A DNA stretch of 64,000 nucleotides from Octopus vulgaris (Eukaryota), in assembly GCA_951406725.2 (NCBI GenBank), contig OX597818.1:95418001-95482000 (forward strand), read 5' to 3'. Position numbers and translations under genes: made by a program. Shown piece after piece: positions 493 to 47,869 of this stretch. Below the pieces are notes generated by a model that was not told where the DNA came from, did not search any database, and saw nothing but the letters and a program-made list of their open reading frames with translations. How positions within the stretch are numbered: position 1 is the stretch's first letter; the number at the start of each line of letters is the position of its first letter.

Positions 493-580
493 TGCAGCTG
501 AAGATAGCGCTGTATTTAAAAATTGATGTAATGATTGCATTGTTCAATTAAATGGAGCCTCTTGAAATGGTCATGCTGCA
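493..580 (+). ncRNA. Degenerate hammerhead-like motif
   Basis: TGCAG-CTGAAGA-(59 nt)-GAAA-TG-GT-CA-T-G-CTGCA; stems I and III pair, but position 17 is G. Confidence 0.45.
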
Positions 581-703
581 TTATTACTTGAAATCCTGTT
601 ACTTATCTTGATTTTATTCACCTTACTTCAAGCTGTGTGGATAATACCAGACTGACTTGTTGCTTCAATTTAATTATATAATTCAACTGAATCTTAATTA
701 CTT

Positions 704-746
<43 letters not shown>

Positions 747-769
747 ACTGTACATATTATATATATATA

Positions 770-802
<33 letters not shown>

Positions 803-862
803 CATCATCATCATATATATATATATATATAAATACATGTATACTTATATTGTTTATTGCAG

Positions 863-1000
863 AGGACATCAGCTCATTCTTCACCAATACAGAGAAAATC
901 AAGATAATATATCGCTATCTCTGTGCTCTTCGTGCCCAGCAATCTGACACCCATATCCCTGGATATCCAAATGCAAAACTCTACCCTGGCAAAAGTTTAT
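863..1000 (+). CDS. ANO10: Anoctamin-10 (TMEM16K) internal exon, first in window; gene starts upstream of window
   Basis: ttgcag acceptor at 861-862, gtaagt donor at 1001; encodes EDISSFFTNTEKIKIIYRYLCALRAQQSDTHIPGYPNAKLYPGKSL, like the ANO10 IPGYPQAKLYPGKSL motif; phase 1-1. Confidence 0.9.
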
Positions 1001-1194
1001 GTAAGTTCTGTATATTTGTTCCAATGTGTTTGTGCGTGTGTGTGAGAGAGAGAGAAAGAGACAGAGACAGACAGATATAGTGTGAAAGAGAGAGAGAGAG
1101 TTTGTGTCTGGATATGGCTATATAGTTACACATACATACATATTTGTATGTGTGTGTGTCTATGAAACTACAGAAGTGTGTGTGTATGTGTGTG

Positions 1195-1625
1195 TGATTG
1201 GTGTGCCAAAACTAATGTAAAAATGGGCTTAATTTTTTAACAAACTATGTGCACATATGATTGTTGTACTTGAAATAAAAGTAGGCCTCACTTTTCTGAG
1301 TGTGTATAATGATTGTACTAAAAGTAATGCATAAATGAGTGAAATTTTTCAGTGTGTGCAAACAGCAGACATCCTGAAAGTAATGCATAAATCAGCTTAA
1401 CCTTTTTGTCTGCACATATAATAGCTGTACCAAAACTAATACAAAACTGGGCTTAACTGTTTAGCAAATTATTGTGAGCGTGTATATATGTGCAAGAATG
1501 CATGTGTGTGTTTGTATGTGTGCATGTGTGCGTGTACAAGGATTGTACCGTAAAGTAATGCAAATGTGGGTTTCACATTGTAGCAAAAGCAATAAAAAAG
1601 TGGGTTTGACTTTTTAACAAACTTT
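1195..1625 (+). repeat. Degenerate minisatellite, about 60-110 bp units
   Basis: recurring gattgtaccaaaagtaatgcaaaaatgggcttaactttttaacaaact + (TG)n. Confidence 0.65.
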
Positions 1626-1761
1626 GTGTGTGTTTGTGTGTGTGTGTGTGTGTTGTATTCAAAGAGATATGAAGACTTGCATTTAACAATGGAACAAATG
1701 AATCACTTACAATTGAGACTATCTTGAGCTGTACTTTTATATAATATAATAATAATAAAAC

Positions 1762-1843
<82 letters not shown>

Positions 1844-3310: not shown

Positions 3311-3483
3311 GTAAGTATCTAACAATTAAGCTGTCTGTCTCTCTTATCAGTCTATTCTGTTATTCAGTTATGTCTCTTGTATGGCTACTCACACACACAT
3401 ATAGCTGAAGCTAGCCAGGGAATCATGATGTGGCTCATAATGTTGGTTTTCGGGATGTTTTTTAAAATGTTTAATTTGTGTAT

Positions 3484-3548
3484 ATTCACCTGATGAAAAC
3501 GTTTTTTTCCGCATGATGTAATAATTCTATTCATCAGCTGTAGTGAAT
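3484..3548 (+). ncRNA. Hammerhead-like motif lacking the GAAAC box
   Basis: ATTCAC-CTGATGA...TTCATC-AGCTGTA-GTGAAT; 6-bp stem I perfect; GAAAC absent where expected before AGCTGTA. Confidence 0.45.
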
Positions 3549-3580
3549 GAACCAATATCCATCTGTTGTTATTTGTTTAT

Positions 3581-4048: not shown

Positions 4049-4434
4049 GTATGTATATGTATATATCTATATATATATATGGAACATATGGAAGAGGGAA
4101 GCTCAAGAAGACATGGGACAAAGTACTAAAAGATGGCCTCTGGATGCTGAACCTCTCAGATGAGATGAAAAAGGACTGAGATATCTCATGCCTTGCTATG
4201 TCCAGGAGGACTCATCCTCAACACCAATAGTGTTAAGGCCATTCCTCCTGGTGAAGAGGATTGGCCTGCACAAGTCATGTGCTGGTGTTACTTAAAAAGC
4301 ACTTATCCTGTTGCTATGTTGATAGGTTCTATTCTCCTGCCTCTGATTGAGTCTTAAAAAAAAGTTATTCATTTTAAAAACTAATTTCTCCACACGCTGT
4401 AACCAATTCATATCTTTTTCCTTTCTCATTACAG

Positions 4435-5007
4435 ATGACATCAGAGCTTACTTTGGAGAGAAACTGGCCCTTTACTTCTCGTTCCTTATCGTCTACACCT
4501 ATGCTCTCATTGCTCCAGCTATCATTGGCATCATCTATTTAATCACCAGTTGGAATAACATCTACCGAGAAGCCATCTTTGCTGTTTTCAACCTCATTTG
4601 GACAACCATCTTTTTAGAGTTCTGGAAGCGATTCTGTTCAGAACTTACTTTTAAATGGGGCACCCTAAATGAAGTGGTAGAAACTGAGGAACCTCGTCCA
4701 AGCTTCCATGGAGTTTTAGGCACCAACCCTGTGACAGGCCATCCCGAGCCAGTCTATCCTAAGTGGAAACGACAACTGCGATTTTATGGTGTCACAGTTC
4801 CAGTTATATTGTTATGCCTGCTCATTGCCTTTGAAGCGATGTTATTGTATTTCCAAATGCAGGATTGGGCAAACCTTCTCTATGAAAAAGACCCGAGTTA
4901 CCTGAATTATGCCAATATGATGTGTTTCCCCAGCATTGTCTATGCTGTTGCTGTGACTATCATGAATACCTTGTATAACATACTTATCAAGAAGCTTAAT
5001 GATTATG
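4435..5007 (+). CDS. ANO10: Anoctamin-10 large exon (573 bp; N-terminal transmembrane region)
   Basis: ttacag/gtaaga; DDIRAYFGEKLALYFSFL...FLEFWKR...WGT...EEPRPSFHG...NPVTGHPEPVYPKWKR, hallmark anoctamin motifs. Confidence 0.96.
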
Positions 5008-6382
5008 GTAAGACTGTTGTGATAAATAATGCCCCTTGTGTTGGGAACTGTTCTGTAGAATTTATTGGTGGTAAACCTTGTGTTTTATTGTAGCAGACAC
5101 TTTCTTCGGTAGCAATATAGAAACTTTACTATTCTATTTGACCCATGCAAGCATGGAAAAGTATACATTAAAACAATGATGATGTTGATGCCGATGATGG
5201 TATCAGAACACCTTACTGAATTTTTTTTTCCATCTTGTGAGAAGCCTTGTAATATTTTGTGGGAACTTACCTTTACCATATGTGTATATTCATAATTTTG
5301 TGGAGTTCTGAGTTTACATTTCTTTTTTTTTTTAGTTAGGAGGAAGAAGGGTAGATGCTCATAAACTTCACAGACTTCATGATTAATGAGACTGATATGG
5401 TTTGTGTTCAGCTTGAATACTGTAAGTCATCATCTACAGGGGATGGATGTGAAATGAAGGCAAGAAAGGAATTCCAGAAAGTTAACACAATAAGGAAGAA
5501 AGATTTAGAATAGGGATTAGAGTTGAGCTGGGGAAGAGGCACAGTATGAAGAGAAGAAGCAAAACAGGTGTATCAGATGGGTTTGTTTAAAGGTAGTGTG
5601 GATTCAACTAGTTCAAAGGACAGAAGCCACTGTAATAATAATAAAGCAAACTTAGAGGTGAGACAGTATGTTTGTGGGTCAGATATTGTAGTGTGTTGGT
5701 GAGTAAAGATTTGCCAATCAATTCTTTTTGGTGCAGTCTTGAATGTTTGTGTCCATAACAGTAAGCACTGTTCCAGATACAGTAGCATGTCTTGATTGGT
5801 GAGGTATTACTTGAGTAACTACACTCATACATATCCTGAAGGTGGTTACTACAATCATGCCCTGAAGAAGAAGGCAAGTACATGTAGTAACCTGGCATGT
5901 TTGCGCCTCCTTATCAATGTGATACTTGTAAATGAGCACCATACAAATGGTATTCTTCATTTCTAATCTTCCATGAAAGCATGTTTGGCAATGGAGAAAT
6001 ATCACCTTGCTTGAAAGCAGATGAGGATTAGCAACAAGAAACATCCATCTGTTAAAAATTTGTCTCAATGGATTTTATCTGACCTATGTACTCATGGAAA
6101 AGTAAATATTGCTTTCAAATTTTGGCACAAGGTCAGCAATTTTGGACAAGGAATAGGTCAATTAAATCAATCCCAGTGCTCAACTGGTATTTATTTTATC
6201 AACTCCAAAAAGATGAAAGGCAAAATTGATCTTGGTGGAATTTGAACCCAGAAAGTAAAGACAAATGCAATGCCTCTAAGAATTTTGCTCTGCATGCTAA
6301 TGATTCTGCCAGCTTGCCACCTCAGAAAAGTAAATATAAAAACGACGATGATGATGATGATGATGATATATGTGTGTATATA

Positions 6383-8037
6383 ACGGGAAGCTTTATGAAA
6401 ATAGACAAAAGACGAAGGCAGGTTTACGGAAATAAACAAAAGACGAAGGCAGGTGGAATACAAACAAACAATTGTATTAGTATGGCGCTCAGGAAATATA
6501 AATAAAACAAGTCTTTAACGTTTCGAGCCTACGCTCTTCAACAGAAAGATACACAGAGAAAAAACACAGAAAGAAGGAGAGAGAAAAAATATGCGTGCAG
6601 AGGCTAGCGAATCAACATGGCGATCTGATTTCGGCCAGAAGTCAAAGATCAAGCATGAGACGCAAGAGCGAAATTAGGGGAGATAATAGGGTTGAATGAC
6701 CTCGCTCCAACATAAGAGTGTGTGTGTGTGTATGAGAGAGTATTAGTGCGTATGAGAGGTCTGGACGTGTGTATGTATATATGATGTGATGTGTAAAGTC
6801 GTATGGTGTAGTGTAGAGAGAGGAGATGAGGGAAGAGGGAGGAGAGAGGGGGGGAGGGGGAGAAGGAAGGAGAGGAGAAGAGAAGGGGGAGAGGAGGAGA
6901 GGGGGAGAGAGAGAGAAGGAGAGTGAGGGAGCAGAGAGAAAAAGGGAAGGGGAAGAGGGAAGAAGGAGGGAGGGAGAAAGAGGGAAGAAGGGAAGAGGAG
7001 TAGGGGTGAAAGGATGAAGGACTGAAGAGAAGTAGGGGTCGGGGGAAGGTTAGATGGGGAGGGGGGTTAGATGAGGAGGGGGAGAGTTGAGACCAAATGG
7101 CATATAAGAGTGAAGAGAGAAGATTAATTCCTGTTCACGGCACAAACGAGAATCCGGATGGCCTCTGTGTAAGGACAAACCGAACACAGACAGGTGTTGC
7201 AAGGAGCGGAAATGGCGTGAGACCGGTGTGTCGTTTGCAAGGCGGATGTCACGAAGGTGTTCCGCGAACCGGTCAGCCAAGCGGCATCCCATTTGTCCGA
7301 TGTACAGGGAATGGCAGAGAGAGCAAGAGACGCAATAGATAATATTGCTGAAGGTGCAGGTGAAGGAGTTGATGATGCGATAGGGTCAATGATGGGTGCC
7401 AGTGAGAAGGGTGGTGTTGGAGAGGTAAGGGCAAGTGCAGCAATGTGGGCGGGAGCAGGGGAACGAGCCAGGTTGGGAAGTAGGGTCAGGGAAGGAGCTA
7501 TGGACCAAAAGGTCTCGACGGTTATGGGCTCGTTTGAAAGAGGGGAGGGGTCGGTTAGGGAAGATGTGTGAAGTGGACGGGTCGGACTGGAGATGACGGA
7601 AAGCTCGAAGAATGGTGTGTTGGAGAGGTAGGGTCGTGGGGTGGTAAGTGAGGGGAAAAGGGAGACGGGAGACTACAGGGCGGGTTCGGGGAGAGAGAGC
7701 AGATACACGGTCCACGGAACGTGCTCTGGTGAGGGCGGTGTGGATAGTGGTGAGGGGGTATCCACGTAGGATGAAGTGGTGAGCCATACGTTGAGACTGA
7801 GTCTCAAAGTCATGGTCGTCACTACAGAGCCTACGTAGACGGAGGAATTGGGAATAGGGGATGGAAAGCTTGGTGTGTTCTGGGTGGGAGGAAGAGAAGT
7901 TGAGGTATGAGTGTGAGTCTGTGTGTTTATAGTGAATAGAGGTGGTAAGAGTGGAGTGAAGAATGCTAACCGAAATGTCGAGGAAGGAGACAGAGGTGTT
8001 GGAGATAGTGGAAGTGAAGTGGAGGGCTGGATGGAAT
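6383..8037 (-). mobile_element. 5'-truncated Penelope-like retroelement (RT C-terminus + GIY-YIG endonuclease + 3' non-coding tail)
   Basis: ORF 7386-8072: HPALHFT...VSFLDISV...IHYKHTDSHSYLNFSSSHP...IPYSQFLRLRRLCS...RGYP; then NIIYCVSCSLCHSLYIGQMGCRLADRFAEH...R..REQELI...PFGLN (GIY-YIG); frameshifted. Confidence 0.9.
6512..6549 (-). ncRNA. Minimal type I hammerhead ribozyme-like motif at 3' end of the Penelope element
   Basis: minus strand TCTTT-CTGTTGA-A-GAGC(GTAG)GCTC-GAAAC-GT-T-AAAGA: stem I TCTTT/AAAGA, stem II GAGC/GCTC, palindromic ACGT stem III; A6 replaced by U. Confidence 0.6.
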
Positions 8038-8387: not shown

Positions 8388-8424
<37 letters not shown>

Positions 8425-9053
8425 AATGTAAATACCTCTTGGAAAGCAAATTTACAGCAGCATTTGTTAGGGGATACATTTTAAGGATATACTGTGTTTA
8501 AAAACACAATATACAGCATGTCCATAAGAAATATTATCTTTCGAAAAACAGTGCAGTAAATTTGCTTTTCAAGATGTGTTTACATTAAGTATAATACACA
8601 GCTGACTATTTTAATCAAATATTGCTTCTGTTGCATATAACAGATCAAGAATTAATCTTGTATGGTATTAGACATACCTGTATTTATCTGTGTTGTTCAA
8701 ATACATTCCACTGTCCACTCTTAGTTATCATTCTTAGCTCATTTTTGTTTAAATTATGAAATTATCTATGCCAAAAATGTATTCTGCTCTTTTTTCGTAT
8801 AAGTCTTACTGGAAATGAGGTGATGACAGCTATTGAGCCAAAAACACATTTACATGACTCTCTTCTTATCTCCTAACAATAAGCTAATCCTTTTCCTTAA
8901 TGGCATGTCAGTTCTGGAGAATTCTTGATTCGTGTAATTGAGATTACCACCCCTTTTCACAAGTGGAGCTGACCCTCATTGCCATTTGGTAATTATGATA
9001 CATGCTCTTCTAGAGGCAGAGATAATTTTAATAAATCAATCATTTTTGATGTG

Positions 9054-9659: not shown

Positions 9660-11750
9660 GTACCCTGGTAGATAAAGCAATTAAGGATATGAAGACAGGA
9701 AAAGCCCATCAGGAATCAGTGCTGAGATGCTTAAAATATCCAGCAGTGTGGGTTATGGTCTAGTCACCCGTATTGTAAATCAGGTGGTTCATGAAGGAGT
9801 AATACCCAATGACTGGTGTAGCAGCACCATAGTCAACTGCTACAAGGGTAAAGGTGATGCCTTAGATAGAAATAATTACAGAGGTTTCAAATTGTTGGAT
9901 CAGGTGATGAAAGTTGCAGAGAGAGTCATAGCCCAACTAATCAGGGAGAGAGTTAGTCTAGATGAGATGCAGTTTGGGTTTGTGTCAGGTAGAAGCACTA
10001 CTGATGTTATATTTCTCATAAGGCAACTGCAGGAAAAATACCTAGCCAAAGATAAACCTCTGTATTTGGCTTTTGTTGACTTGGAGAAAGCTTCTGACAG
10101 AATCCTCCAATCCCTTATCTGGTGGTCAATGCAGAAACTAAGGATAGACGAGTGGTTGGTGAGAGCTGTACAAGCCTTGTACAGGGATGCTATCAGTAGA
10201 GTGAGGGTGGGCAAGGAGTACAGTGAAGAATTCAGGGTACAAGGATTCACCAATAATCGGTGCTCAGTCCCCTCTTGTTCATCATAGTCCACCAGGCAAT
10301 AACAGAGAAATGCAAGACAGGCTGCCCCTGGGAGCTCCTCCATGCTGATGACCTTGCTCTTATAGCTGAATTACTGCCTGAACTAGAGAAGAAGTTCCAG
10401 GCATTGAAACAAGGTCTAGAATCAAAGGGCCTTAGAGTTAACCTAGCAAAAACCAAAGTCATAGTCAGTAGGAAGGCAGACAACTCACAAATCCCCTCAG
10501 ATAGATGGCCCTGTTCAATCTGTAGAAAAGGTGTAGGTAGAAACTCCATAAGATGTACGAAGTGTAGGCTTTAGACACACTAAAGGTGCAGTAAAATCAA
10601 AGGAAGGTTAACAGAAACTATCCTTTGTATGTGGGAGGTGCACAGGCATAGTAAATGCTGAACATGTGCAGAAAATAGACTCTATCAACTGCCAGTGAAG
10701 CAAGCTAGAGGTAGTAGATAGATTCTGGTATCTAGGCAACCAGGTTAGTAGTGAAGGTGGATGTTCTGGGAGCATAGCTGGGAGAATAAGATTAGGTTGA
10801 GCAAAGCTCAGAGAGCTTCTACCCCTGCTAGCAACAAAGGGCCTCTCTCAGAGTGAAAGGCAGATTGTTTGATGTCTGTGTGTGAACAGCAATGCTGCAT
10901 GGCAGTGAAACATGGGTTATAACAGCTTAGGACATGCATAGGCTTGAAAGAAATGAAGTCAGTATGCTTTGCTGGATGTGCAATGTCAGTATGCATGTTC
11001 AACAGAGTGTAAACATCTTGAGAGAAAAGTTAGGCATAAGAGGAACCAGATGTAGTGTGCAAGAGAGGTGACTGCACTGGTGTGGTCATGTGATGCATAT
11101 GGTCAAGGACAGCTGTGTAAAGAAGTTCCGATCTTTAACTGTGGAGGGAACCTGTGGTAGAGGTAGACCCAGGAAGACATGTGACGTGGTGGTGAAGCAT
11201 GATCTTTAAACCTTGAACCTTACAGAGGCAATTACTAGTGACTGAGACCTTTGGCAATGTGCTCTGCTTAAGATGACATGCCAAGCCAAGCACACCCATG
11301 CTGGTGAGTTCCTTTTGAGTGTTGGGCCTCATGAAGGCAAGTGGCTGAGTTCCTTTTGAGTGTTGGTCCTCACAGAGGCGAGGTGACTGAGTTCCTTTCA
11401 AATATTGGACTCCATGGGGGTAAAGTGGTCGAGTTCCTTTCCCGTGTTGGGCCTTACAAAGGCAATGACCAAGACCTTTGGCATTATGTCATGCTTGAGA
11501 AGAAGACCCATCAAGCCAAGCAAAATCACAGTTATGGAAGATACCGATGTCACGTAAATGGCACCCATGCCAGTGGTATGTAAAAACACTCATTACTCTC
11601 TCAGAGTGGTTGGCATTAGGAAGAGCATCCAGCCATAGAAAACCATGCCAAATCAGACTAGAGCCTGGCACAGCCTTCCACTATGCCATCTCAGTCAAGC
11701 CGTCCAACCCATGCCAGCATGGACAACAGATGTTCAACGATGATGATGGT
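9660..11750 (+). mobile_element. 5'-truncated RTE-clade LINE (RT domain, Cys-rich insert, 3' UTR ending in (GAT)n)
   Basis: IPNDWCSSTIVNCYKGKGDALDRNNYRG..LLDQVMKV.ER; QFGFVSGRSTTD.IF; AFVDLEKA; LSPLLF; LLHADDL; later L.W.GHV..M and GRGRPRKT; stops and frameshifts. Confidence 0.9.
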
Positions 11751-11930
11751 GGTGGCGGTGGTGGTGGTGGTGGTGGTGGTGATGATGATGATGATTATTT
11801 GTTAAAATGATATATCAGTGTTATTTTCATTTTTGCATAATTTAGAAGACAATATATTCACTACATCCTATATATATATATATATATATATATATACTTT
11901 ATTTAAAAGCAGCAGAAAATTCAACAAAAC

Positions 11931-11968
11931 CTGTTACTCTGAGTTTCACGTTCCTGTTTGTCGGACAG
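11931..11968 (-). ncRNA. Degenerate hammerhead-like motif inside a 36-bp inverted repeat
   Basis: minus strand CTGT-CCGACAA-acaggaacgt-GAAAC-TC-A-GAG-TA-ACAG; same stem III as 41430 motif; core U4 and G8 altered. Confidence 0.45.
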
Positions 11969-12081
11969 TTTTTGCTAGCAAAGGTTTTGTTGAATTTTCT
12001 GCTGTTTTTAAATAAAGCATATTACTCTACCACTGAGTACTCTTTTTTCCACCTTGTTTCACATTTATGTGTTTGCTCCAG

Positions 12082-12174: not shown

Positions 12175-12175
12175 G

Positions 12176-16476: not shown

Positions 16477-16555
16477 TGTTTACAGCTGTTTCAGTATATC
16501 AAGCTGGGGTAAATTTACATTTACCTTATTGCAAGTGATAGATATCATCAGCACA
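16477..16555 (-). ncRNA. Type I hammerhead ribozyme-like motif with intact core
   Basis: minus strand TGTG-CTGATGA-tatc...gata-tact-GAAAC-AGCT-GTA-AACA; perfect CUGAUGA and GAAA, palindromic stem III ACAGCTGT, GUA cleavage triplet; stem I has one mismatch. Confidence 0.65.
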
Positions 16556-16814: not shown

Positions 16815-17884
16815 ATGACAGATCTGTCGGGCTTTCAAAGAGGTCAATTTATTGGTGCTCGTATGGCAGGCGTTAGCATAATGGAAACAGCTGAAATGTT
16901 TGGTGTATCAAGTACTGCCTCAAAAGTAATGACAGCCTTTAAGAAAGAGGGAAAAACCTAACCTCCTCATCGAAACAAAACTCTGGAAGAAAGCCAAAAC
17001 TTTCAGGTAGGGACCATCGGACTCTTACACAAATTGTTAGAAAGGATCACAAAAGTACAGCTCCCAAAATTACTGCAGAGATTAATGACCACTTCGAGAA
17101 CCCAACTTCCATAAAAACTGTTTGCTGGAAACTGCACAAAGCCAGATTTCACAGGATGGCTGCAATCAGAAAACCACTACTTTCAAAAATAAACATTGCA
17201 TTTAGAGTAGAGTGAAAACTTACAGAATAGGTCCTTAAAGCAGCGGAAGAATGTTATTTTCTTGGTCAAGTCATCCTTTACCTTATTTCCAACCACCGGG
17301 TGAGTATATGCATGGAGACAGGCAAAATAAGCATTTGACTCAGACTGCCTTCTTCCAACTGTTAAACATGAAGGAGGATCTGTGATGATCTGGGGGGCTA
17401 TATCTTGGAAATCTGTCAGCCCAATGGTTTCCCTTCATGGCAGAATTAATAGTCAAGACTATTTTAGCAGTTTATCTGATCAAATTCATTCAAATGTTGC
17501 AGAACTGTTTCCGGAGAGAAAAACAATCTTTCAGGATGATAATACACCAATTCAGACAGCTAAAGTTGTTACTGAATGGCACAAGGAACATTCTAGTGAA
17601 TTTGAACATCTTATCTGGCCACCACAGTCCTCAGATCTCGATGTTATTGAACATTTATGGTGTATTTTAGAAAAACAAGGAGTCAATATCCTCCACCATC
17701 ATCACTACAAGAACTGGAGACTGTTTTAGCTGAAGAATAGGCAAAAATTCCTTTGAAAACAATTCAAATTTTGTACAAGTCCATACCTCATAGAATTCAG
17801 GCTGTAATTACTGCCAAAGGTGGTCCAACCCCATATTAAAATAAATTTGTTTGAAATGTTTCCATTATTTTGTCCAACCCCCGT
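16815..17884 (+). mobile_element. Tc1-family DNA transposon, decayed transposase with 3' TIR
   Basis: MTDLSGFQRGQFIGARMAGVS HTH start; GGSVMIWGAISW; FQDDNTPIQ...WPPQSSDLDVIEHLW (Tc1 DDE); 3' end ttccattattttgtccaacccccg followed by TA. Confidence 0.88.
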
Positions 17885-20786: not shown

Positions 20787-20922
20787 GTAAGTAACTGTTG
20801 TGAAGGATCTCCACTCGAAACGTTAAATCCTCCTTCTTTCTTTCCTTTCCTGGGCGTCCAATAACACTATACTTATTCCACGTCCTCACGTTGTTGAGTT
20901 TTCTCTTTGTTCATGTTTGGAT

Positions 20923-20959
<37 letters not shown>

Positions 20960-21205: not shown

Positions 21206-22656
21206 TATGTATAATTGAGTAACTCCTTTAATTGATTATGAGAAAATTAATCAATTAAAGGAGTCATTGGAAACAGCCATAATGAATTGACATCTGTACC
21301 GCTTTGTTATTCACTTATATTTTATTCACCTATCCTGGAATCTACACTTCATAAATATTATAAATAGTATTTTTAATATGAAGTACATGTCTGAATAGCT
21401 AAGAGCAGATTTCTTCCCTCAGCTGGGCCTTATTATCTGCATACACTGCAAGCATACCATGTGGCCGGCACTTATGCACCAAGTCTGATATTCACTTAAT
21501 ATTGTTGAGTATACATGTTACTCAGACCTAACAAGTTGTTTCAACTGAATCTTAATTGTGTGTGTGTGTGTACATGTACTGGAAGGCTTCGGGTATATTT
21601 CAGTTGGTGGATGGATCGATTACCCTGTAGAATCAGGAGACAGAGAATGACAGGCAATCTAAATGAAGATATTTTTTATGACCTAAATATGTGGTATACT
21701 TACATAATTATCCAGAAATTGTATCTGTACGAAATATAACGAGCAGGGGAGTCAACTCAGGATTTGTTTTTGCTTTCATTGAAGTATAAACATCTCCACA
21801 CTCACTAGAATCCTGATTAGGGAATATATTGCTGTACCATAATGGACGTAGGGAGATGACAGAAGATAATTACCCAGGTAGCTGTCTACGCGAAGAATAT
21901 TTATTTCTTTATTGCCCATAGGGGACTAAACATAGAGGAGACAAACATGGACAGACAAAGGGATAAAGTTGATTACATGGATTCCAGTGTGTAACTGGTA
22001 CTTATTTAATCGACCCTGAAAGGATGAAAGGCAAAGTTGACCTCGGTGGAATTCGTACATGAAGAATATTGGACAAGTAATGCCTATTATATATACAGGC
22101 ATGTTGTGTATGAGGATGTGTGTGTGTGTGTGTTTGCTTGACAGCAGGTGTTGGTGTGTCTGTGTCCCATAACTTATTCAGCAGTAATGACCAATAGAAT
22201 AAATATTAGACTTAGAAAAAAATAAGTACTGGGGTCGATTCGTTCAACTAAAATTTTCCAGGCAGTACCCCAGCATAGCTGCAGTCAAATGACTGAAACA
22301 AGTAATAGATAAAAGATATATATATATACATACATACTCTATGTGGCACCAGCACTAGTGGGGTCATCGTGTAATTCACAAGAATAAGATTCACCTTGAC
22401 TGTAGTAAAGAGGGAGGCAACTTTATGTTGGGTGTTGAGAGGTTAAAATATGAGAGATGGGTAGCAACAGGTTTCTTTCTGTAGAGGAGTTACATGGCTA
22501 CCTTGTATTATAAAAGAATGGGTAAGAATAATCCTTATGGAACTGTGAAGATAGACAAAGAGGGTGGAGGTAATGTATCAGAGCGAGGTGTTAAGTTAGA
22601 AGAAAGTGAACAGAATCAGAAGGATGCATAGAGGTTGCAAGAGTTAGATGTAGTGA

Positions 22657-29860: not shown

Positions 29861-30532
29861 GTACCAACATTGGGGCTAATGTAGATTCGTACCTCACCTT
29901 GAAAAATGCATTTTTCTGAACAAGTTTTATTCGGATTCCTAGGTTTTGCGTATTGGAGATTAAACCCCCACCCTCAAACTATCCCCCTCCCTCCAATTTT
30001 AAATGTGTTGTTGTATATTAAAGTATGGAAATTTCATTAAGTAGGTATGTAATGTGGAAAAATACAGGGATTTTAACAATATCAAAACAACAATTTCTAT
30101 ATTTTAGCCAAATGAACACAGAAGTGCACTTTACATACCTGCTTTAATGAAATTTCCACACTTCAGTATACAACAATACAGTTTAATACAGTTCTATATT
30201 TAAGAGATGAGGAATTATGTACATTATTTACATTCGATGGATATTTGTCCTCATCTTGTCCTCAGCTGTTATACCCTCCAGCCTTCATCAGGTGTCTTGG
30301 GGAAATTTCGAACCTGGGTTCTCATTCCTAAGGTATTTTTCAATGTTATTGTTATTATTATTAACCACTATTATTAACCAGTATGCCACGGGCATATGGC
30401 ATACTGGTTAAGAGCGTGGGCTACTAACCCCAAGATTCCGAGTTTAATTCCAGGCAGCTAATATTTTACAACCAAGATACAAATGAATAAAACTGCTTTG
30501 TTATTTTCTAATTTCTTTTTTTTTTTTTCCAG

Positions 30533-31379: not shown

Positions 31380-32170
31380 GGCGGCGAGCTGGCAGAATCA
31401 TTAGCACGCTGGATGAAATGCTTAACAGTATTTCACCTGTTGCTGCATTCTGAGTTCAAATTCCACTGAAGTTGACTTTGCCTTTCCTCTTTTTGGGGGT
31501 CGATGTAATCAACTTAATCCCCTCACCTAAAGCTGTCCTTGTGGCAAAAATTTGAAATAATAATTATTATTAAGGCAACGAACTGGTAGAATCGTTAGCA
31601 CACTGGATGAAATGCTTGGAGATATTTCGCCCATCTCTACGTTCTGAGTTCAAATTCTGTCATGGTCGACTTAGCCCTTCATCCTTTCGAGATCAATAAA
31701 ATAAGTACCAGTTGAACACTGGGGTCGATGTAGTCAACTCATCCCCTCCCCCAAAATTGCTGCCCTTGTGGCAAAATTTGGAACTATTATTATTATTGTT
31801 GTTATTATTATTAAGGCTGCAAGCTGGCAGAATCGTTAGCACATCAGGCAAAATGCTTAGCGGTATTTCGCCCATCGCTATGTTCTCAGTTCAAATTCCA
31901 CCGAGGTTGACTTTGCCTTTCATCCTTTTGGGATTGATAAATTAAGTACCAGTGAAACACTGGGGTCAATGTAATTGACTAGTCCCCTCCCTCAAAATTT
32001 CAGGCCTTGTGTCTTTAGTAGAAATAATTATTATTATCAAGCTGCGAACTAGTAGAGTCGTTAATATGCTGGACAAAATACTTTGCCATATTTCATCTAT
32101 CTTACATTCTGAGATTGAGGTTGACTTTGCCTTTCATGCTTTTTGAGGTGGATAAAAAAAAATACCAGTT
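31010..32170 (+). mobile_element. Second SINE family A array downstream of the ANO10 stop; first copy inverted
   Basis: same unit as 28771-29860; minus-strand copy about 31010-31175 followed by about five plus-strand copies. Confidence 0.85.
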
Positions 32171-33506
32171 AAGCACTTCTCAGAATTATTCAACTATAAT
32201 TATAGATAAGGACTATCAAGACATAGTTAATGAAAGTTGGTAATTAGAAGAGCCAAATCATCTCCAGATCGAATAGTTGAGAAATTCTTCCATTATATCT
32301 CAAGCTGGTGCTAGACCAAATAACTACTGATAATAAGTAAAGTGAGCTCCTGGATACTAAGGAATTTTAGCTAAAATTACACCATGAATAAGAAAATAAA
32401 CATAACCTTAGTAGTCAAGCTCAGAATATAATAAAAAATAATTAGAAATAGAATGCAGGAAATGAATCTCAGAAATGAGAAGAATTACTGTTAACCTCTC
32501 GAAACAAGGGAGATAATACGAAGGTATGCCAAGTTAATTCCCCTGAAAATGTCTGCCAACCAACACCGACAACCTCTGCTAAACAATATAATGTAATTTA
32601 AGAGATAAAAATTAAATGGAATCCACACGAAAGTTAATTACACAGATTCAAGAGTCGTTTACTAACATAGAAACAAATGCATTTATTCACTTTTATTGTA
32701 ACTGAAAATCATTTAAAATTTTTACTTTGTACTTTATAATCTAACGTTGTTATAGCTAAACCGTCATATCGAACAAAATTATTCGAGAATCAGTGCATAT
32801 ATATATATATATATATAGTAACTAACACCCCTGACAAACTACCTTGGTGCTTAATCTTGTTTTTACACTTGTTAAGATTTACAAAATGTTTACGAATGAA
32901 ACTTTATAAAAGTTAACTTGTACTTTTTAAAACGTATTTTATAATAACTAATGAATAATAAATATGGTTTTAGATTTTTAATTCGTGTTTTATCTTGTTT
33001 TAAACATTTTTGTTCTGCTTGTTTTCTCAATCCTTCCATCTTGGATGTAAATTACACATCTGAGCAAGACTCGTAACCTTACCACTTCAGTCATGTTTGC
33101 TATAGTTGAAGATATGTTACTTTTAACTCTTTAGCATTCAGATTACTCTAGTTTATTCACATTGTTTTGAATTAATCGTGTATTATCGCATAGCTTTGAG
33201 ATTCCAATAATGGGATTCTTTGTTTTTAGAATGACGTTGTAGAGTAGGTGTGAGAGGCCAGTTTGAACATAAAACAGGACAAAATTTTGGGGTCAGATAT
33301 GGCAATTTAAATGCAAAGAGATTAAAGAAGCAGGGACGACCAATTTGGCCACCACACAGGACTGCCAAAACCCATACTATCTCAAATTAGTTTGTTTTGT
33401 TAAGAGGTCCCTCACCAGTTTCGTGTTTCAAAGGAAAGAAGGGTATCCAAGTGTTAAAAAATATTTACTCCTGCAAATAGAGATCTGCTCCTGTAAAGGT
33501 TGAGAT

Positions 33507-37734: not shown

Positions 37735-38891
37735 TTAAATTGCAGTCAAACTATCACTGGTGTTTATACAATCGCTGGGAACTTGCTCTGATTGGCTGGA
37801 ATTCAATGAGTCACAGGAGCCAATTCTGAAGTGGAGGCTGGGCATGTGTATTGCATTGCTGTCATTCAGGTTGCTATGACAACAGTCGCTGGACGTGCTG
37901 CCCACTTGAGACAAAATTGCCGACCTTTTGTCATCATCATCGTTGCCCATCACAATTTCACTGCTGAGTCGCTCGACAAGTTCAGTGGTGCCAGTAACGT
38001 CGTTATCACAGATGGCGCTGGCCATTTCTATATTGTTAGAGTCAGTGAAGTTGAGGAGAGGCTCACTGGAGATTCTGCCGCAAATCTTCACCGGAGATGG
38101 ATGCCGCCAGCAAGCTGTGATGTCCTCTGAACTAAACTGAACCTGTTCTCGCTCAATATCTCCATTCCGCCCCTCTCTACCTGGCCCTCCACCACTGCTA
38201 CCTCTGTTATTGCCACCACCACCACCACCTCCACTGCTGCCACCACCACTGTTGCTGTTGTTTCTGCCACCATTACTCTCCACATCAGTTTGTCGGTTTG
38301 CTCGTTCAACCCGGTGTGTTTCGTCTCGAGTTTCCGACTGCTCAGAATCAGACGACTCACTGGGTAGAAGAAGGGTGGTAGTTGATCCTTGCCTATCAAA
38401 GTCAGTGTTTGTGCTATTTACAGTGTCGTCTTGGCCGTCTGTAATTAGAGGAACATCTGACCCATCACAGCCTTCCTCGGTTGCGGGCCTCTCCGTTGCC
38501 GTGACAACTGCAGGATTCTGTTCCACAAGTTCGGCTGTTGTTTGGCTGCTCTCGGTCAAACAGCTTCTTGATCGCGAACTGGAATTCGATGAGCGGTGAC
38601 GACTGCGGTTGCTACGTCTCGAGTGACGTCTGCGCTCCTGGAAAATACGCTGGGCTTCTTCAAACGGCATTGACGTAATCATCGCCTCACAATAGGAAGG
38701 AGGTGCTGGGCGTCGCATAAACTCCGACTGCCAGTGGGTGAGTGGGCCCCCAGGTTCGGTCAGTCGCAGGCGGTGCCGGTCACGGTGCCGCAGAGAGTTC
38801 AGTTTACAGGTAAATCCAAGGGCAATGACCAATAGCAGGGCACATGTGAGAGAACCAACCACAGCTACCAATATCACTCTGTTGGAACTGC
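37735..38891 (-). CDS. LRP12/LRP3/LRP10-family receptor, last exon (transmembrane helix + cytoplasmic tail)
   Basis: minus-strand acceptor ttcttctctcttccag; GSSNRVILVAVVGSLTCALLLVIALGFTCKL resembles LRP12/LRP3 TM (VIGSL.CGLLLVIALGCTCKL); RRPAPPSY motif; stop at 37735. Confidence 0.9.
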
Positions 38892-40737
38892 CTGGAAGAG
38901 AGAAGAAAAAGACTGGATCAATAATGAGGTTAACTGCATTGGTATATAAAGATTGGTTATATTAGAATCAGTAGTAATAGAGAAGAGACAATGATGATGA
39001 GGAAAGGAAAGAGATTGTCATAATGTAGAAAGGAAAAGATAACTACAAAGAGAAGAGAATAAAAGGTGGCATTAGACAGAAGTGAATGAAAAGTGACTCC
39101 AGAGAGAAGTGAATGAGGAAATGTGATTAGAGAGAGGTTAGAGAGGAAAAGTGATTGTAAAGAGGGGAAGTGTGACTGTAGAGAGGGGCAAGAGTGGAAA
39201 GGTGACTATACAGAGAGAAGAGAGGGGAAGTATAAGTGTGGAAGATGAGATGAAAGGACACCTCTAAAGAAGAACACAAGATGAGAGTGTAGTTGTGATG
39301 AGGAAAAGAGATGGTAGAGAAGGAGTAACTGTAAAGTGAGTGACTGTAGAAATAGTGAAAGGAGAAAGATTGTTGACTATGTAGTAGGCAAATGTGAACA
39401 TATATACATAAGCATATCTCTATTTGTACATATGTGCAAGTACATCTAACTAGTGTGTGTGTATATACACAGTTATAGATATTGCACCTGGAATGAAGAG
39501 GGGGTCAAGATTTTTAAAGTTTTCTTATGCAAAGACTTACCATTTCCAACACAAACATCAGGAAACTGAAAGTCAACTTGTCACCAACTAATCAAGTGAA
39601 CATGCAAGCCAGATAGACTTCTCACCCAGCAAGCAACAAGACAGACAGCAGGTTGTGAATATCAAGTTATTTCTGGTGACGAATGTACCACTCAAGATTG
39701 ACAAGTGGTTAATGACTTTGGGATAAGTGCCTGACAGAGTCAAAGACACAAGATAAACTTGAAAAAGAAGTAATGCTGAAAGATACCTTGACTTTACATG
39801 GGTTCAAATAAGTACCAGGTGACACATATGACAAAGAAGACAGAGACTAGAAAGTGGTAGTTTCTGCAAGATATCCTGCTGTAAGCCATAGTCCAGACCT
39901 GTGGTTGTAGCCAAGCAAGAGAGATGCCTCAGAAATCCAGAATGATAAAAAATCTGAAGTGAACATGCAGTGGAGAATGAGCCTGATCTTTAGTAAAAAC
40001 AATGATGAGTCTGGACATGTTTCAATCATACTGGACCTCCTCAGTGAAGCATGGACAAACTCATATGTTCTTCATGTAGAAGTTATCTCAGAATAATTTG
40101 CCCATCATGGTTGCAAAATTGCTTCATCAGTGTATAATTATCTGCCAAAATCTATGTAATCTCTCAATTATTCTTTAGATCTGGCAAGTACAAGTAAGAC
40201 AATGCATTGCTAAGGAGGTCAAATATCAGAATGTTACTACACTTGCCAAAGATGAGGCTCACTCCTAACTACATACTTCCATTCAATTTCCGATTGATTG
40301 AGATTTCTGAATTGTTTAAGTTGCCTTTCTTAAAGATGATTATCATTAATACTTACGACTTTTCTCTTCATTAAGGATAGACGTGGCATATTTGAAACAA
40401 GTTAACTCAATAATGGACTCAAATGATAATTGATCATGGAGTACCAACAGCAGAAGTTCTCCAAAGTCAGACATGTTGCAAGGCTCACAGGCAACAGGTG
40501 CACCCATGCAGTTGACAAGTGTTATGCAAGAAATCATAAGAGACCACTTGAGAAACCTCCATGATAATAAGAAGTTAACACAGCAAAACAATTTGGGCCC
40601 AAATAGAAGAATAAGAAGAATGAAAGTTCAGTGTGACCAGCAATGTTTAGGGACATCTGACAGCCTGGGTGATAAGAAAATATAGACATGCCTGTGTGTA
40701 TATATGTATGTGAGAGTGTGAATGTGTGTATCTATAT

Positions 40738-41330: not shown

Positions 41331-41429
41331 CTGAAATATAACACACAAACATATCACAACTTACTGTTGTGCACAGAAGATATAAATACACCTACACACA
41401 TATATATTTTATATTGGTTGAGTCAGTCT

Positions 41430-41477
41430 CTTGCTACTCTGAGTTTCACTTGTAGATGCACAGCATCTTCAAGCAAG
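41430..41477 (-). ncRNA. Type I hammerhead ribozyme-like motif (C3U variant) within an inverted repeat
   Basis: minus strand CTTGC-TTGAAGA-tgctgtgcatctacaagt-GAAAC-TC-A-GAG-TA-GCAAG; stem I CTTGC/GCAAG perfect. Confidence 0.55.
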
Positions 41478-41610
41478 TTATGACTCATAACAGGCAAGAA
41501 GATCTTGTGCACTTACAGGTGAAACTCAGAGTAGCAAGAGAGTGACTCAACCAAAATAAAATATATTATCATATATTATTAATGTACTGAATACTCTTTT
41601 CCCCAGGCAG

Positions 41611-42301: not shown

Positions 42302-43030
42302 ATTTAAATACATCATTTTCAAACTAGCTATTGCTATTGTCTCAATGGTCCTGTGGGTAAAGACATACAGACATAGCAACACATATACCCCTTGGACAAA
42401 GGATCAATCTTGGCCCATGGCCTATACTGATTGTTTTTGTTCTTCCTCCTTTTAACACATCTCTAGAGAAAAATAAAACTAAATGAGATCATATTACAAT
42501 CCCTACCTGAGACTGAAACCTCCATCTACCCCACTGTCTTTGTCTGTCACCAAACACCCTTATCCACAAAGCCAGTAATACTACTTATACCAAATATGAG
42601 ATATTTAAATCTATTCTAATGATTGGTTAGTGATTACATTAGTCTGATAGGTTTAAATACATCATTTTCAAACTAGTTATTGCTGTTGTCTCAATGGTCT
42701 TGTGGGTAAAGACATGGACACAGCAACACACAAACCCCTTTAACAAAGGATCAATCTTGGCCTAAGTATTTTTTTTCGCCCTCTTCTCCATTTACAGAAA
42801 AAATAAAACTGAATGAGATCATATCACAATCCCTACCTGAGACTGAAACCTTCATCTACCCCACTGTCTTGTCTGTCACCAAACGCCCTTATCCACAAGG
42901 CCAGTAATACTACTTATACCAAATATGAGATACTTAAATCTATTCTAATGATTGGTTATTGATTACATTAGTCTGATAGGTTTAAATACATTATTTTTAA
43001 ACTAGCTATTGCTGTTGTCTCAATGGTCTT
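42302..43030 (+). repeat. Tandem duplication, about 330-350 bp unit, about 2.2 copies
   Basis: tttaaatacatcattttcaaactagctattgctgttgtctcaatggtc recurs at about 42303, 42652 and 42981. Confidence 0.8.
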
Positions 43031-44145
43031 AAGGGTGGAGACAATAGCAAGCAATATAGAAGCATCCTGATACAGAGTTCAATCTTGTCCCTGGGCATAC
43101 ACTGAAGGGTTTTTTTTTTTTTTGTAGTTGTTTGAGTGGGGCACCTTCTTGAAGGTTTTAGTCAAATAAATCGATCCCTGTAATTAATTTTTTCAAGGCT
43201 GGTCCTTATTCTATCAGTCACTTTCACTGAACCATTAAATCCAAGTAAAAATTATCCACCTGCTTCTTTTTCCCCTTTCCCCTCCTATCTAACTAGATAG
43301 AAAACATGTAAATATTTAATAAAACTCTTTTATAATACTTGGCAGAGATTGAAACCCTCCACCTCAACATATGCCTCTGCTTATAAAGCACCTTTACCCA
43401 CAAGGCTACCAAAGAAACAACTGTATCTATTTTTAAAAAATGTGATATTTAAATATAATTTCATCATTCACTATATAGCTACATTCATTATAAAGATGCT
43501 CAATCTCCTGCAAACAGCAGCTAAGGCTCGCTTACATCACCTGTAACTGGTCTTCAGAAAAAACAAAGAACACCTCAGAGACATGGATCTAAAAGGGATG
43601 TACAACAGATTATTTTGATAATGTTTCACTTTAAAATATTTTGTTTAAACTTTAAATGAGAAATGTTGCAGTACCAGTAATTATATATTTCGTTGTCCAA
43701 TGTATCATAAAGAAAAAGTTACTGAAAACCAACATATTAATGTATTTCTTAATACATTATGACTGAGTGATAGATGGGTTGGTCATGGTTGGAGTGTTTT
43801 TGATCGTAGATCAACTCTAACAAAACAAAAACATTTTTAAAAATTGATTTTAGATTTTTCAAGTTTTTTTCTTTTTTTCTTTAAATTATTGAAAGAATTA
43901 CTTTGATATTGTTTTGGATGTGGATGACAGCCTCATCAACAGCAATGATGACAGCTGAGAGAGAACTGCCACTACTACAGTGGACAATCACCAAGTCACT
44001 ACTGCAGTGTTGTTCATCAGGCAAGGAACTGCTGTGAGCCCGATAATGCTGAATAGTTTGAACAAACTGCATATATATATATATATATATATCTAATATA
44101 GGATAAAATTTTCAAAAATTTTTATCAGTGGCCAGCATTGCCCCC

Positions 44146-44185
<40 letters not shown>

Positions 44186-44735
44186 TCATCATCATCTAAC
44201 GCCCGTCTTCCACACTGGCATGGGTTGAACAGTTTATTGGCAAGCTGAAGGATCCAGTCCGATTCAGCCTGGCCCCTACGGTTTGACGCCCTTCCTAATG
44301 CCTACCACTCTAGTGTGTGCTGGGTGCTTTTAATGTGGCACCAGCACAAATGCTTTTATGTGACGCTAGCTTGAGTGCTTTTATATGGCACCAGCCCTTG
44401 ACTCTAGCAAACCAATCTTCTTTACCAGGGGAAGCAACCAGCCTTAACACCTCTGCTGTGAGGGAGAGGATAATGATGAGCTTCTTTCAGTTTTTATCTA
44501 TGAAATGCACACTCATTTAAAATACTATTGGTTATTTTTTTGTCCCAACATGTCCTTTCCAAACCCCAACAAACAACAAATTACGTATTGCTTTGAGAAC
44601 AAATTAAAATAAAAGGAATTTATGTATATATATTTACGTATATATGTATATATATATATTTACGTTTTTTTTTTTAAGTTTCAGGTCAGAGCTGCGGCCA
44701 TGCTGATGCACCGCCGTTTTGCTACACTGTTATTA

Positions 44736-45170
44736 CTAAGAGCCTCCTCTAATATGTGGCACTTGGTGAAGAATGGAGTTCGATATAGCTACCCTCATTT
44801 GCATCTCTTGCTGTGAGGTAGGTTCATTTGGGACTCTCAACAGGAAGAGGTCCAGCTTTGATTTAAAAATCCCTACATCTACTTTGTGCAAGTTCCTCAG
44901 ACTTTTTGGGAGAATATTAAAAAGCTGTGGTCCCTTGAAACAACCCAGGTTGTTGCAGTAACTGGTCCTGAAGCGTGATGGCATTGGTGTAGCTTTCAAT
45001 GCCAAAATTTGGCACAATTCCTTCCAGATATATATTACTGCATACCTCTCCAGGGAATAGAATCTTAGCTGTTTCAACCTTTCCCAGTAGCTGAGCTGTT
45101 GCAAAGAGACGATCTTCTTTGTGAATCTTTTCTGGATTGCTTCAAGGTCCGCTATTAATTTCACACAGGT
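44736..45170 (-). mobile_element. CR1/L2-like LINE 3' fragment (duplicate at 56371-56800)
   Basis: IADLEAIQKRFTKKI..LQQLSYWERLKQLRFYSLER..IYIWK...GPQLFNILP..LR...FKSKLD.FL. Confidence 0.8.
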
Positions 45171-45244
45171 GGGTGACCATAGGTGTAAGCAGTAATCCAG
45201 CGGCTGAGGACAAATGTCCGTCAGAGGACCATCATGGTTTCCTT

Positions 45245-45316
<72 letters not shown>

Positions 45317-45826
45317 TACATACGTGGAAAATCAGTGTGTTTGTTTGTGGCATTGTTAGTTAACTCCTCTTACATCATGTTATTGATTTTGATGAAACTT
45401 GCGACATGAGTAGAACTCATGTCTGGAAACCTTGTGACATACTTAGATTTTTGAAAAAAATCGATAATACAGCCCATGGAAGGGACCTTTATATCTACCT
45501 CATATAACTATTGTTTTAAACACCTAAGGGAAATAACCCATAGTAACTGTACCTTATTTTTCAAACACTCAAGGGAAATAACCCATTTCATTGTTTATGT
45601 TTGATTACCCACATATATATATACATGTACACACACACACACATATATATATATACACACACACACACACATATATATATACACATATGCATATACATCT
45701 AAACATACACACACATATATATATATAAATATATACATAGTGAGAATTTACAAAAAAACAAAAGATGAAGACGGGTGTGTAAACAACAAACAGATGTATT
45801 AGTTTAACGCTCAAGAAGTGAGAAAG

Positions 45827-45864
45827 TCTTTTACGTTTTGAGCCTATGCTCTTCGACAGAAATA
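45827..45864 (-). ncRNA. Hammerhead-like motif related to the Penelope 3' end, GAAA mutated to AAAA (duplicate at 57433-57470)
   Basis: minus strand TATTT-CTGTCGA-A-GAGC(ATAG)GCTC-AAAAC-GTA-AAAGA; flanks 45735-45910 resemble 6400-6625. Confidence 0.5.
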
Positions 45865-46504
45865 AACAGGGAGAGAAAATAGAAACGGTTTAGTGGCTAG
45901 CGATCTATCATCTACATACATATATAAGAAATGAAAGGGCTTAATAAATCCAGGAAGATTTCTATAAAGCACTGTGTTAAACAAATTTGATTAACACTAT
46001 CAATCAGATTGGAATATGAATACCAGAGTACAAAACGGACAATTTCAGACTGACAAGCGTTTGTAAGGAGAACAGAATTGCCGTATTGGAAATAAGGCTT
46101 TATTCAACTTCTTTGACAGATACGGTAGACAAATAATAATTTTTGCCAGCAAGTCAAAAATGAGTTAATGACGACATGATGCAGTTTGGTAATGAAAAGC
46201 TAGCCAAAATAGTTACGTATAAAAAATACATACATGAACAGCATGTATATTTTCATATAAACATGTATATGCAAACAACATAAACATGCATACACACCGT
46301 TTATTGCATTCTCACAACACAGATATCAATAATTGCGAGTAGAATTAATATCCAAGGTAATTCTTTATGCATTACAAGTAACTCCAAATATCACTTCGAA
46401 GAATTTCAAGAAATTCAGAGTTTAAGACAACAAGAATAAGAATAGAGAAAATTACATCTTTAATTGATGAATACATCACACATTACTGATGATCCTTTCT
46501 GTCA

Positions 46505-46915
46505 CAGATGGCTCTAGTAACACAGGAATGGATGGCTGAAAATTTTCATGATCACATAACCTCTAACATTTGGCCTCCTAATTCCCCAGATCTCAATCCA
46601 TTGGACTATTACGTGTAGAGCGTTGTTGAGATAGTGGTCAATGAACATGCCCATAATGCCAAAGATTCTTTGAAAGCTGACATAGAGTAATGTCCAAAAT
46701 GAACCAGGACCACTTGATTCAAGCATGTAGATGATTTATATCTCATATAGAAGCAGTTGTTAAAGTTTAAGGTAGCTTTATTGAATAACATTATAGAAAA
46801 GAAGGTTTATTTTTATCCTCAGCATTTTTTGATAAATAAAATTATCATCTGTTATTATATATCTGTTTTTTTTATAAACATAAATCTGTCCTCAAAATAC
46901 CTTACGCACCTTGTA
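46505..46915 (+). mobile_element. Tc1/mariner-superfamily 3' fragment (duplicate at about 58110-58522)
   Basis: tggcctcctaattccccagatctcaatccattggactattacgtg = WPPNSPDLNPLDYYV; ends cgcaccttgta. Confidence 0.75.
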
Positions 46916-47869
46916 TATAAATAAGTAACAAAGATGTACAGGTGTCAATTCATAACAGCTGTTTCAAATGACTCCATTTAATTATTTAATGAGAACATTA
47001 TATCACTTTGAAACAAACTGCTCGCTTCAAAGTATCTTTATACATTGTTCAGTTTCCTGACATTTGTACATAATTCTATGTACTATACATGCACCTTTGA
47101 TAATTGGTAGTGCACCTGAGCACTATACACAATAATTTCATTATTATTTTCACCTCCACTAACACAAGTCTAATAAAACTAAATAAACTGATGGTTTAAT
47201 AGAAATTTGAGGTTAGTTAATTTAGAAATTAATAGAATACAATAACTAAATGGAAAAGATCTGCATCTACATTCAAACTTTGGACTAAATGAACAGAGTA
47301 AAAAGTGAAATTTTATTATAATCAAAGTTCAGAGTTTAACAGTTGATATTGTACAGTTTCTCAGATTTATTTCTCAAAATAGAAATAGAAAAGTTATAAT
47401 GACTAAGAATGCAAAGGCTATTGGTGAAGAAAATGCCATTGCATGACATAACTATGAACTATAAGTTGAAACTGTTTACTATCTATCAACAGAAAATAAA
47501 AGTGTTTACTATCTATTCAAAGAAAATATGGAATAAAAGAATAGAACTAAGGTTACTGGAAACATTATAATATGGTAGAAAAAGGTATGCATATGTATGC
47601 AATAGATTGTTACAAATTTGGAAAAATAGTAGATTTAAAGCATTTTAAATTTCTAAAGATACTATTATATCAAGATTAATTCTGAGTGTCGACTAAATAA
47701 AGGGGAGTTGGAAACAAAAATTTTTTTAAATAAATAACTAACAGGAGAGATCTTCAGAGGAAGAACTCCCATCCAACAAGTATTTCAGCCCTTCCTGGCA
47801 TTCTACGGGAGCCGGGCCCACCCAGATCATTTCTCTCCTAGGTGTCATTCTGTTGCTTTCCAAAATCCT

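Follow-up and report, generated by a model that had tools for sequence, protein, structure and literature searches.

Penelope-like elements of Octopus vulgaris with dispersed hammerhead motifs, including a young family whose U6 core probably slows self-cleavage

Eleven hammerhead-like motifs are dispersed over a 64-kb stretch of one contig (OX597818.1) of the 2.8-Gb Octopus vulgaris assembly. This whole stretch is called the window below, and genome-wide counts refer to the complete assembly. The motifs had been proposed in an earlier sequence-only reading. The coordinates of all 11 strings could be confirmed and, in part, their architecture, a type I minimal hammerhead with a palindromic stem III. 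We consider it probable that the loci are mostly short, 5′-truncated 3′ ends of several families of Penelope-like elements (PLEs) with type I hammerheads, and that in the young family A self-cleavage is likely slowed by a U at position 6 of the core, which about 99% of the copies carry, with the fold probably still under selection. The family A motif would then act as a slowed, protein-assisted ribozyme. Family profiles assign the loci at 6512 and 45827 to family A, the locus at 20815 to a related sister family (A′), the loci at 21222, 46954, 493 and 3484 to family B or to B-like elements, and the locus at 41430 to family C. The locus at 11931 (family D) has relatives at six loci. Altogether the 11 loci form about six groups, with two loci in A, one in A′ and four in B together with the B-like elements.

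The following family A features are present in the window:

6378..8037, minus strand: 5′-truncated family A PLE with reverse transcriptase (RT) thumb, CX4CX2C linker, GIY-YIG remnant, pyrimidine-rich 3′ untranslated region (UTR) and pseudo-long terminal repeat (pLTR), with a decayed TA/CA tract at its end (sequence searches)
7389..8036, minus strand: part of the PLE open reading frame (ORF), open for 216 codons from the RT thumb to the linker, the ORF being broken downstream in this copy (the full-length relative L151 matches RVT_1 and GIY-YIG)
6512..6549, minus strand: type I minimal hammerhead of family A, its core being CUGUUGA; C3 at 6544, U6 at 6541, G12 at 6524 and position 17 at 6517 (direct reading)
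45729..45907, minus strand: short family A 3′ end, its hammerhead at 45827-45864 carrying U6 and G12A; duplicate at 57335-57513 (family profile)

The motif at 6512 lies ~840 nt 3′ of its own RT-thumb and linker frame (7389-8036) and, as is evident from direct reading, is intact apart from U6. The sequence-only reading had placed both family A loci under the CUGANGA consensus. Direct reading gives U6 instead, a difference that had gone unflagged.

Family A has the core CUGUNGA (A6U) as its fixed state. With positions 6 and 7 left free, 16,109 exact matches were found in the genome, and U6 was present in 96 of the first 100. Only 161 of the matches carry A6; U6 accounts for about 99%. Freeing all 11 core positions led to 19,400 exact matches, and the reversed-pattern controls gave none. 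Copies were also recruited independently of the motif through an anchor located ~60 nt downstream of it (20,661 matches). The first 90 of these were read, and 70 reach the motif; the other 20 were dropped, 18 being truncated within or downstream of the motif and two having deletions in it. U6 is found in 68 of the 70 copies and A6 in two. N7 is U in 29, A in 23, C in 12 and G in six copies, and position 17 is A in 55, U in 13 and C or G in one copy each. None of the other 34 columns of the 36-nt motif falls below 80% identity, compared with 10 of 30 columns upstream and seven of 49 downstream (17 of 79 flanking columns). C3, G5, G8, A9, G12, A13, A14, A15.1 and U16.1 are conserved at 94-100%, and the GAAA box, stems I and II, the extra nucleotide after A9, the palindromic 15.2-16.2 and the NUH triplet are kept. 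Only N7 and H17 vary, which are the positions that hammerheads leave free, and selection on the fold is therefore indicated.

In trees with the variable columns masked, N7 changes by subfamily and U6 persists. With A′ as the outgroup, several A6 copies are placed near the base and others are scattered inside the U6 subfamilies; the A6 rows were deliberately over-sampled for these trees. Judged by these sequences, A6 is probably the ancestral state and U6 probably became fixed at an early point in family A, with selection on the fold likely continuing. The sister family A′ gave 11,609 matches. Among the first 100 of them A6 is found in 98, and position 4 is C in 74, U in 24 and A in two. C4 is also seen in some copies of family D. 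One stem I pair is C-G in family A and G-C in many A′ copies.

The 7389-8036 frame returned 14,866 first-look candidates, and the 150 that were scored show 95-100% amino acid identity and no stops, the 149 copies other than the one in the window being 95-97% identical to it. Eight long family A loci contain ORFs of more than 1000 codons, and four of the eight (L151, L153, L155 and L158) have the arrangement pLTR-ORF-pLTR with the U6 motif at both ends. The L151 ORF encodes 1080 amino acids and matches RVT_1 (E 1.4e-7, above the cut-off) and, at residues 874-907, GIY-YIG (E 0.0066, below the cut-off). DKG and YIDD motifs were recognised in it by direct reading, and a C-X4-C-X2-C linker precedes GIY-YIG. 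The intact ORF and the tandems with U6 at both ends show family A to be autonomous. We take it to resemble the Neptune-type PLEs.

PLEs are established to insert by target-primed reverse transcription from the 3′ end, with frequent early abort, inverted copies and a bias towards microsatellites. Their hammerheads cleave weakly and as dimers (PMC4209133), and in the anole PLE cleavage is protein-assisted and is dispensable for insertion in vitro (PMC11167929). Among 27 long family A copies, 11 run through the upstream cut site, seven start 12-360 nt after it and nine start inside the ORF. Full-length insertions that start at the cut site were considered and rejected, as none of the 27 copies starts there and the nearest one begins at +12. 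The inserted family A copies hold an uncut 3′ motif. We propose that the template for insertion must retain an uncut 3′ hammerhead, so that a slow ribozyme would be tolerated or even favored. U6 is predicted to pair with A15.1, by which the core of the monomer would close into a hairpin. The predicted pairing of G5 with C15.2 amounts to 0.51-0.99 in U6 copies, compared with 0.01-0.29 in natural A6 copies of family A. In that case the RNA would seldom be cleaved, and cleavage would depend on dimerisation via the ACGU palindrome together with help from the protein of the element. A common closed helix stabilised by both U4C and A6U was tried as an explanation and rejected, since the G5-C15.2 pairing is near zero in the C4 copies of A′.

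The same evidence can be read in other ways. The U6 motif might be catalytically dead and kept as a hairpin recognised by the PLE protein or as another RNA signal. The copies that read through the cut site fit such a role, and every single change in the CUGA turn led to low activity in a mutational scan (PMC9901934). Hammerhead mutants were without effect on PLE insertion in vitro (PMC11167929), and Naiad PLEs thrive without canonical hammerheads (PMC8557442). The conservation of the core argues against a dead motif: nine core positions are held at 94-100%, variation is confined to N7 and position 17, and G is avoided at the latter (one of 70 copies), which is the pattern expected of catalysis. 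We regard loss of catalysis as unlikely, if a serious alternative. Much the same applies to the view that U6 is neutral, in that a ribozyme in dimeric form or bound to the PLE protein would tolerate it fully and nothing would be slowed. U6 was kept through several subfamily sweeps in which reversion never took over, A′ tolerates U4C in about three quarters of the matches read, and U4C reportedly retains enough activity in a viroid (PMC3088659). Against neutrality stand reports that changes at A6 slow cleavage (PMC3088659, PMC9901934) and the lack of any long copy that starts at the cut site, and this view also appears unlikely to us. A natural A6C hammerhead, that of the phage Bcep176, is slow yet active (PMC3088659).

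Several observations weigh against the slowed-ribozyme interpretation. Closing of the core is favored by little energy, the gain being 0.2-2.8 kcal/mol among the common variants. A′, which bears A6, is also predicted to close, in another register, and the closed fold is thus not unique to U6. Read-through tandems are also found in PLEs with a canonical core, and they can arise by insertion beside an old copy. The selection signal stems from a few master lineages and not from 70 independent events, and the basal branches of the trees are weakly supported. Finally, no linked ORF was found for A′, C, D or the loci at 16477 and 30262; the C copies were too short, and D, 16477 and 30262 were not searched further. 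A stronger form of the slowed-ribozyme interpretation would make U6 a self-locking switch: the strands would be zipped, and the RNA would stay uncut as an RT template until opened, in a dimer, only by its own protein. We consider this form rather improbable. If it were true, damping of the core (A6U in A and U4C in A′) would be a repeated route to very high PLE copy number, and a large class of such ribozymes would have escaped descriptor searches in which CUGANGA is required.

The remaining loci of the window are the following:

20814..20926, plus strand: 3′ half of a pLTR of the sister family A′, truncated within stem II, with a (TA)n end, intronic (family profile)
21218..21578, plus strand: family B 3′ end, truncated within stem II, with a short fold-back copy and without the 5′ core (family profile)
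46915..47031, minus strand: family B 3′ half (motif 46954-46965); duplicate at 58521-58637 (family profile)
489..745, plus strand: B-like element whose long stem II hammerhead (493-580) has a decayed cleavage triplet with G at position 17; (TA)n end (family profile, E 1.7e-11)
3480..3579, plus strand: B-like element (motif 3484) with the GAAA box deleted and a (TA)n end (family profile, E 1.2e-5)
41402..41566, no strand assigned: family C palindrome of two inverted hammerhead-bearing arms; 41430-41477 is the minus arm and has C3U (family profile)
11892..12022, no strand assigned: family D palindromic element; the hammerhead at 11931-11968 (minus strand) is decayed, with U4C and G8A (relatives L030, L090, L140, L005, L157 and L321)
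16477..16555, minus strand: hammerhead-like motif with a full core, a long stem II and a stem I mismatch; only weak matches on its 3′ side (direct reading)
30262..30295, minus strand: hammerhead-like 5′ half in a repeat found at one other locus (direct reading and search)

As is evident from these features, few of the loci are whole hammerheads and most are decayed or halves. The type I topology that had been claimed for them holds at the level of the families more than at the single loci. At 21222, for example, CUGANGA is missing, and what looks like a stem is a copy of the 3′ half that folds back.

The earlier description of the motifs as non-coding ribozyme retroelements mobilised by PLEs was correct in its link to PLEs and did not survive for families A and B, both of which have linked ORFs. 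On the same strand as the hammerhead and 1.2-2 kb upstream of it, two of the five long family B loci (L191 and L193) carry a broken GIY-YIG remnant. The two remnants match a Pfam GIY-YIG-positive fragment from another locus with E values of 7e-24 and 5e-38, respectively. Neither an intact ORF nor an RT was seen in the five long loci, and the family A protein used as a query did not detect the family B ORF. The 1.2 kb upstream of the family B hammerhead was rejected as coding sequence on either strand, as it contains stops in all frames, and this segment is read as a long 3′ UTR. Judged by these linked frames, families A and B with the two B-like loci (six of the 11 loci) are 3′ ends of protein-coding PLEs and not non-coding retrozymes.

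A model in which unrelated non-coding retrozyme or short interspersed element (SINE)-like families are mobilised in trans by PLEs has more to recommend it for the other families. In family C the copies are very short. Of 13 recruited by an anchor (L196-L208), 12 have their start in the motif itself or no more than ~30 nt upstream of its core, and C is the strongest candidate for a non-autonomous element. The starts of many A′ copies cluster around a point ~80 nt upstream. No match to an RT or GIY-YIG ORF was found in 12 A′ loci, nor in L209 and L043, and a preprint derives animal retrozymes from PLE pLTRs (bioRxiv 10.64898/2026.07.22.740005). Mobilisation in trans is refuted for A and B by the linked ORFs. 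No tandem array was found at any of the 11 loci (94 TRF rows), and longer A′ copies (L053, L227, L209 and L043) extend upstream of the common start, which fits a truncation hot spot in the sequences compared. As an account of the whole set, trans-mobilisation is therefore quite unlikely, and truncated 3′ ends of PLEs remain our preferred explanation; A′, C and D may be truncation products or non-autonomous derivatives. Inverted adjacent copies were found at at least 15 of 30 family B loci (one counted twice), six of 13 C loci, one of 30 A loci and none of 12 A′ loci.

Whether the motifs exceed chance depends on where they are counted. An Rfam scan of the window gave no hammerhead among 133 matches down to E 5, the matches being microsatellites against miRNA models. 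A strict descriptor, which allows no extra nucleotide after A9, found no intact core in the window (mean 0.07 in 60 shuffles) and four matches with one mismatch (mean 1.75 in 12 shuffles), none of them at the 11 loci. The window alone shows no motif excess; the excess appears at the family level. For ten of the 11 loci, matching repeats exist at other places in the genome. DNA searches gave 740 first-look candidates for 6512, 683 for 21222 and 552 for 41430, and in a comparison of 330 genome loci the 30262 repeat matched one other locus only and 16477 had no convincing match. A descriptor of minimal hammerheads, run on 419 kb of flanking DNA, gave eight distinct canonical matches, two of which are arms of one element, compared with a mean of 0.05 and a maximum of one in 20 shuffles. 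This difference indicates that the genome carries many hammerhead families. The checks suggested with the sequence-only reading, Rfam and a descriptor set against shuffled sequence, came out negative in the window; in the flanking DNA the descriptor was positive. The claim of several unrelated families stands in part: there are several sequence families, and not all are unrelated, as A goes with A′ and B with the B-like elements.

The majority letters of the core are CUGANGA and GAAA in both family B (61 arms) and family C (46 arms). The fixed core columns are conserved at 72-100% each, no better than the flanks, which is what old copies in decay would show. The core state of B rests on 61 arms, some of which are halves of one insertion, and the recruitment favored the 3′ half. 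The possibility that the motifs arose by chance in repetitive, AT-rich sequence agrees with the strict descriptor and Rfam results in the window and with the lack of a family for 16477. It is contradicted by thousands of exact copies against no control matches, by the canonical majority cores of B and C and by the excess in the flanks. We consider chance extremely improbable as a general explanation; it is refuted for nine or ten loci and could hold for 16477. As a separate observation, hammerheads with a canonical core from at least six further sequence families lie near L011, L017, L024, L093, L103, L146, L153, L180, L181, L183 and L186, and some of the further families in the flanks have stem II inserts of 40-60 nt.

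The reported association with (TA)n tracts was likewise found. Of the 11 loci, eight have a (TA)4 no more than 150 nt away, which is true of 23% of random points, the contrast being slightly inflated by the use of two ends per locus. A (TA)4 is present at the end of 81 of 90 family A copies. These copies end 109 nt beyond position 17, the would-be cut site, and are joined there to (TA)n; their 5′ junctions also often lie within TA runs. The family B loci L031-L060 show two recurrent 3′ ends, which lie ~60 and ~330 nt beyond the hammerhead and run into TA tracts in both cases. These ends resemble the PLE tail but are far longer than the 30-40 nt described for it.

The nearest known systems are the metazoan PLE minimal hammerheads of Cervera and de la Pena (2014, PMC4209133). 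They share with the loci described here the dispersed single motifs from truncated PLEs, the opposite-strand pairs, the many families per genome, the short stem I, the extra nucleotide separating position 9 from 10.1, the G10.1-C11.1 pair and the palindromic 15.2-16.2. All 56 rows of Fig. S3 of that study have U4 and A6, both of which its descriptor required, whereas family A has U6 and A′ mostly C4; the core variant reported there is U3-A8. The endonuclease-positive (EN+) PLEs of the Neptune/Nematis type (Craig et al. 2021, PMC8557442) have a single ORF with RT, a CX2-5CxxC linker and then GIY-YIG, with cysteines between the motifs, as family A does. Their published anatomy includes partial tandems, 5′ truncation, inverted copies and microsatellite or (TA)n bias, and the elements described here share it. 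The linker sequence of family A fits this description, and the available part of that text does not mention a non-canonical core. Perreault et al. (2011, PMC3088659) describe a change at position 6 and the viroid U4C as single cases, in contrast to the A6U reported here, which is the state of ~16,000 copies of a mobile element that belong to several subfamilies. Non-LTR retrozymes, as presented in the preprint cited above, also have type I hammerheads related to PLE pLTRs. They are tandem, non-coding units, whereas the window loci lie dispersed and ORFs are linked to two of the families. No natural U6 hammerhead family was found among the titles listed in literature searches and in the papers cited here, although work of 2017 or its supplements may list position-6 variants. 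A metagenome scan with the U6 pattern gave no matches, which is uninformative on other animals. Dispersed PLE hammerheads, inverted 5′-truncated copies and microsatellite targeting have already been published; the fixed A6U appears to be new.

Other features of the window are listed below:

4347-5090, plus strand: anoctamin exon (PF04547)
20600-20787, plus strand: anoctamin exon (recognised by reading)
9685-10284, plus strand: long interspersed element (LINE) RT fragment (PF00078)
17334-17729, plus strand: DDE_3 transposase fragment (PF13358)
44739-45242, minus strand: LINE-like 3′ frame without a Pfam match

The hammerhead fragment at 20815 lies ~30 nt into the intron that follows the anoctamin exon at 20600-20787. 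A block of ~10 kb is duplicated in the window, 42759-52505 corresponding to 54385-64000 at 98-99% identity, and its second copy adjoins the sole N gap (54285-54384). This repeat after a scaffold gap is likely a false or haplotype duplication. The two motifs at 57433 and 58560 lie inside the duplicated block and so do not count as independent. A 408-codon frame at 37735-38961 (minus strand) has a transmembrane-like stretch and a PPSY motif and no Pfam match; it presumably resembles a receptor tail. An abundant SINE-like repeat of 150-250 nt occurs at 28686-32177 and at about ten more sites, including 2074, 6105, 8039, 14464, 15351, 21901 and 35803, partly in tandem or inverted clusters. Further palindromes are found at 123-255, which causes a spurious MIR859 match, and at 8413-8600, 29999-30186 and 27175-27224; no hammerhead link was established for them. 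The palindromic element at 23242-23640 shares 95% identity with the DNA just 3′ of the canonical hammerhead in locus L017. From this match it is apparently the 3′ end of another family, folded back short of its hammerhead.

Dispersed hammerheads are in themselves ordinary. PLE hammerheads cleave weakly in vitro and with protein assistance, and insertion does not need the cleavage in the only system reconstituted. Family A offers a natural experiment on why PLEs keep them: it is young and has intact ORFs, and it has lost one core base and kept the catalytic guanines and the remaining pattern through subfamily sweeps. The natural A6 copies and the A6 sister family are ready controls. Searches that require CUGANGA would miss the ~16,000 family A motifs in this genome, as well as some three quarters of a further 11,600. 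Family A could be used to test whether PLEs need to cut their own RNA.

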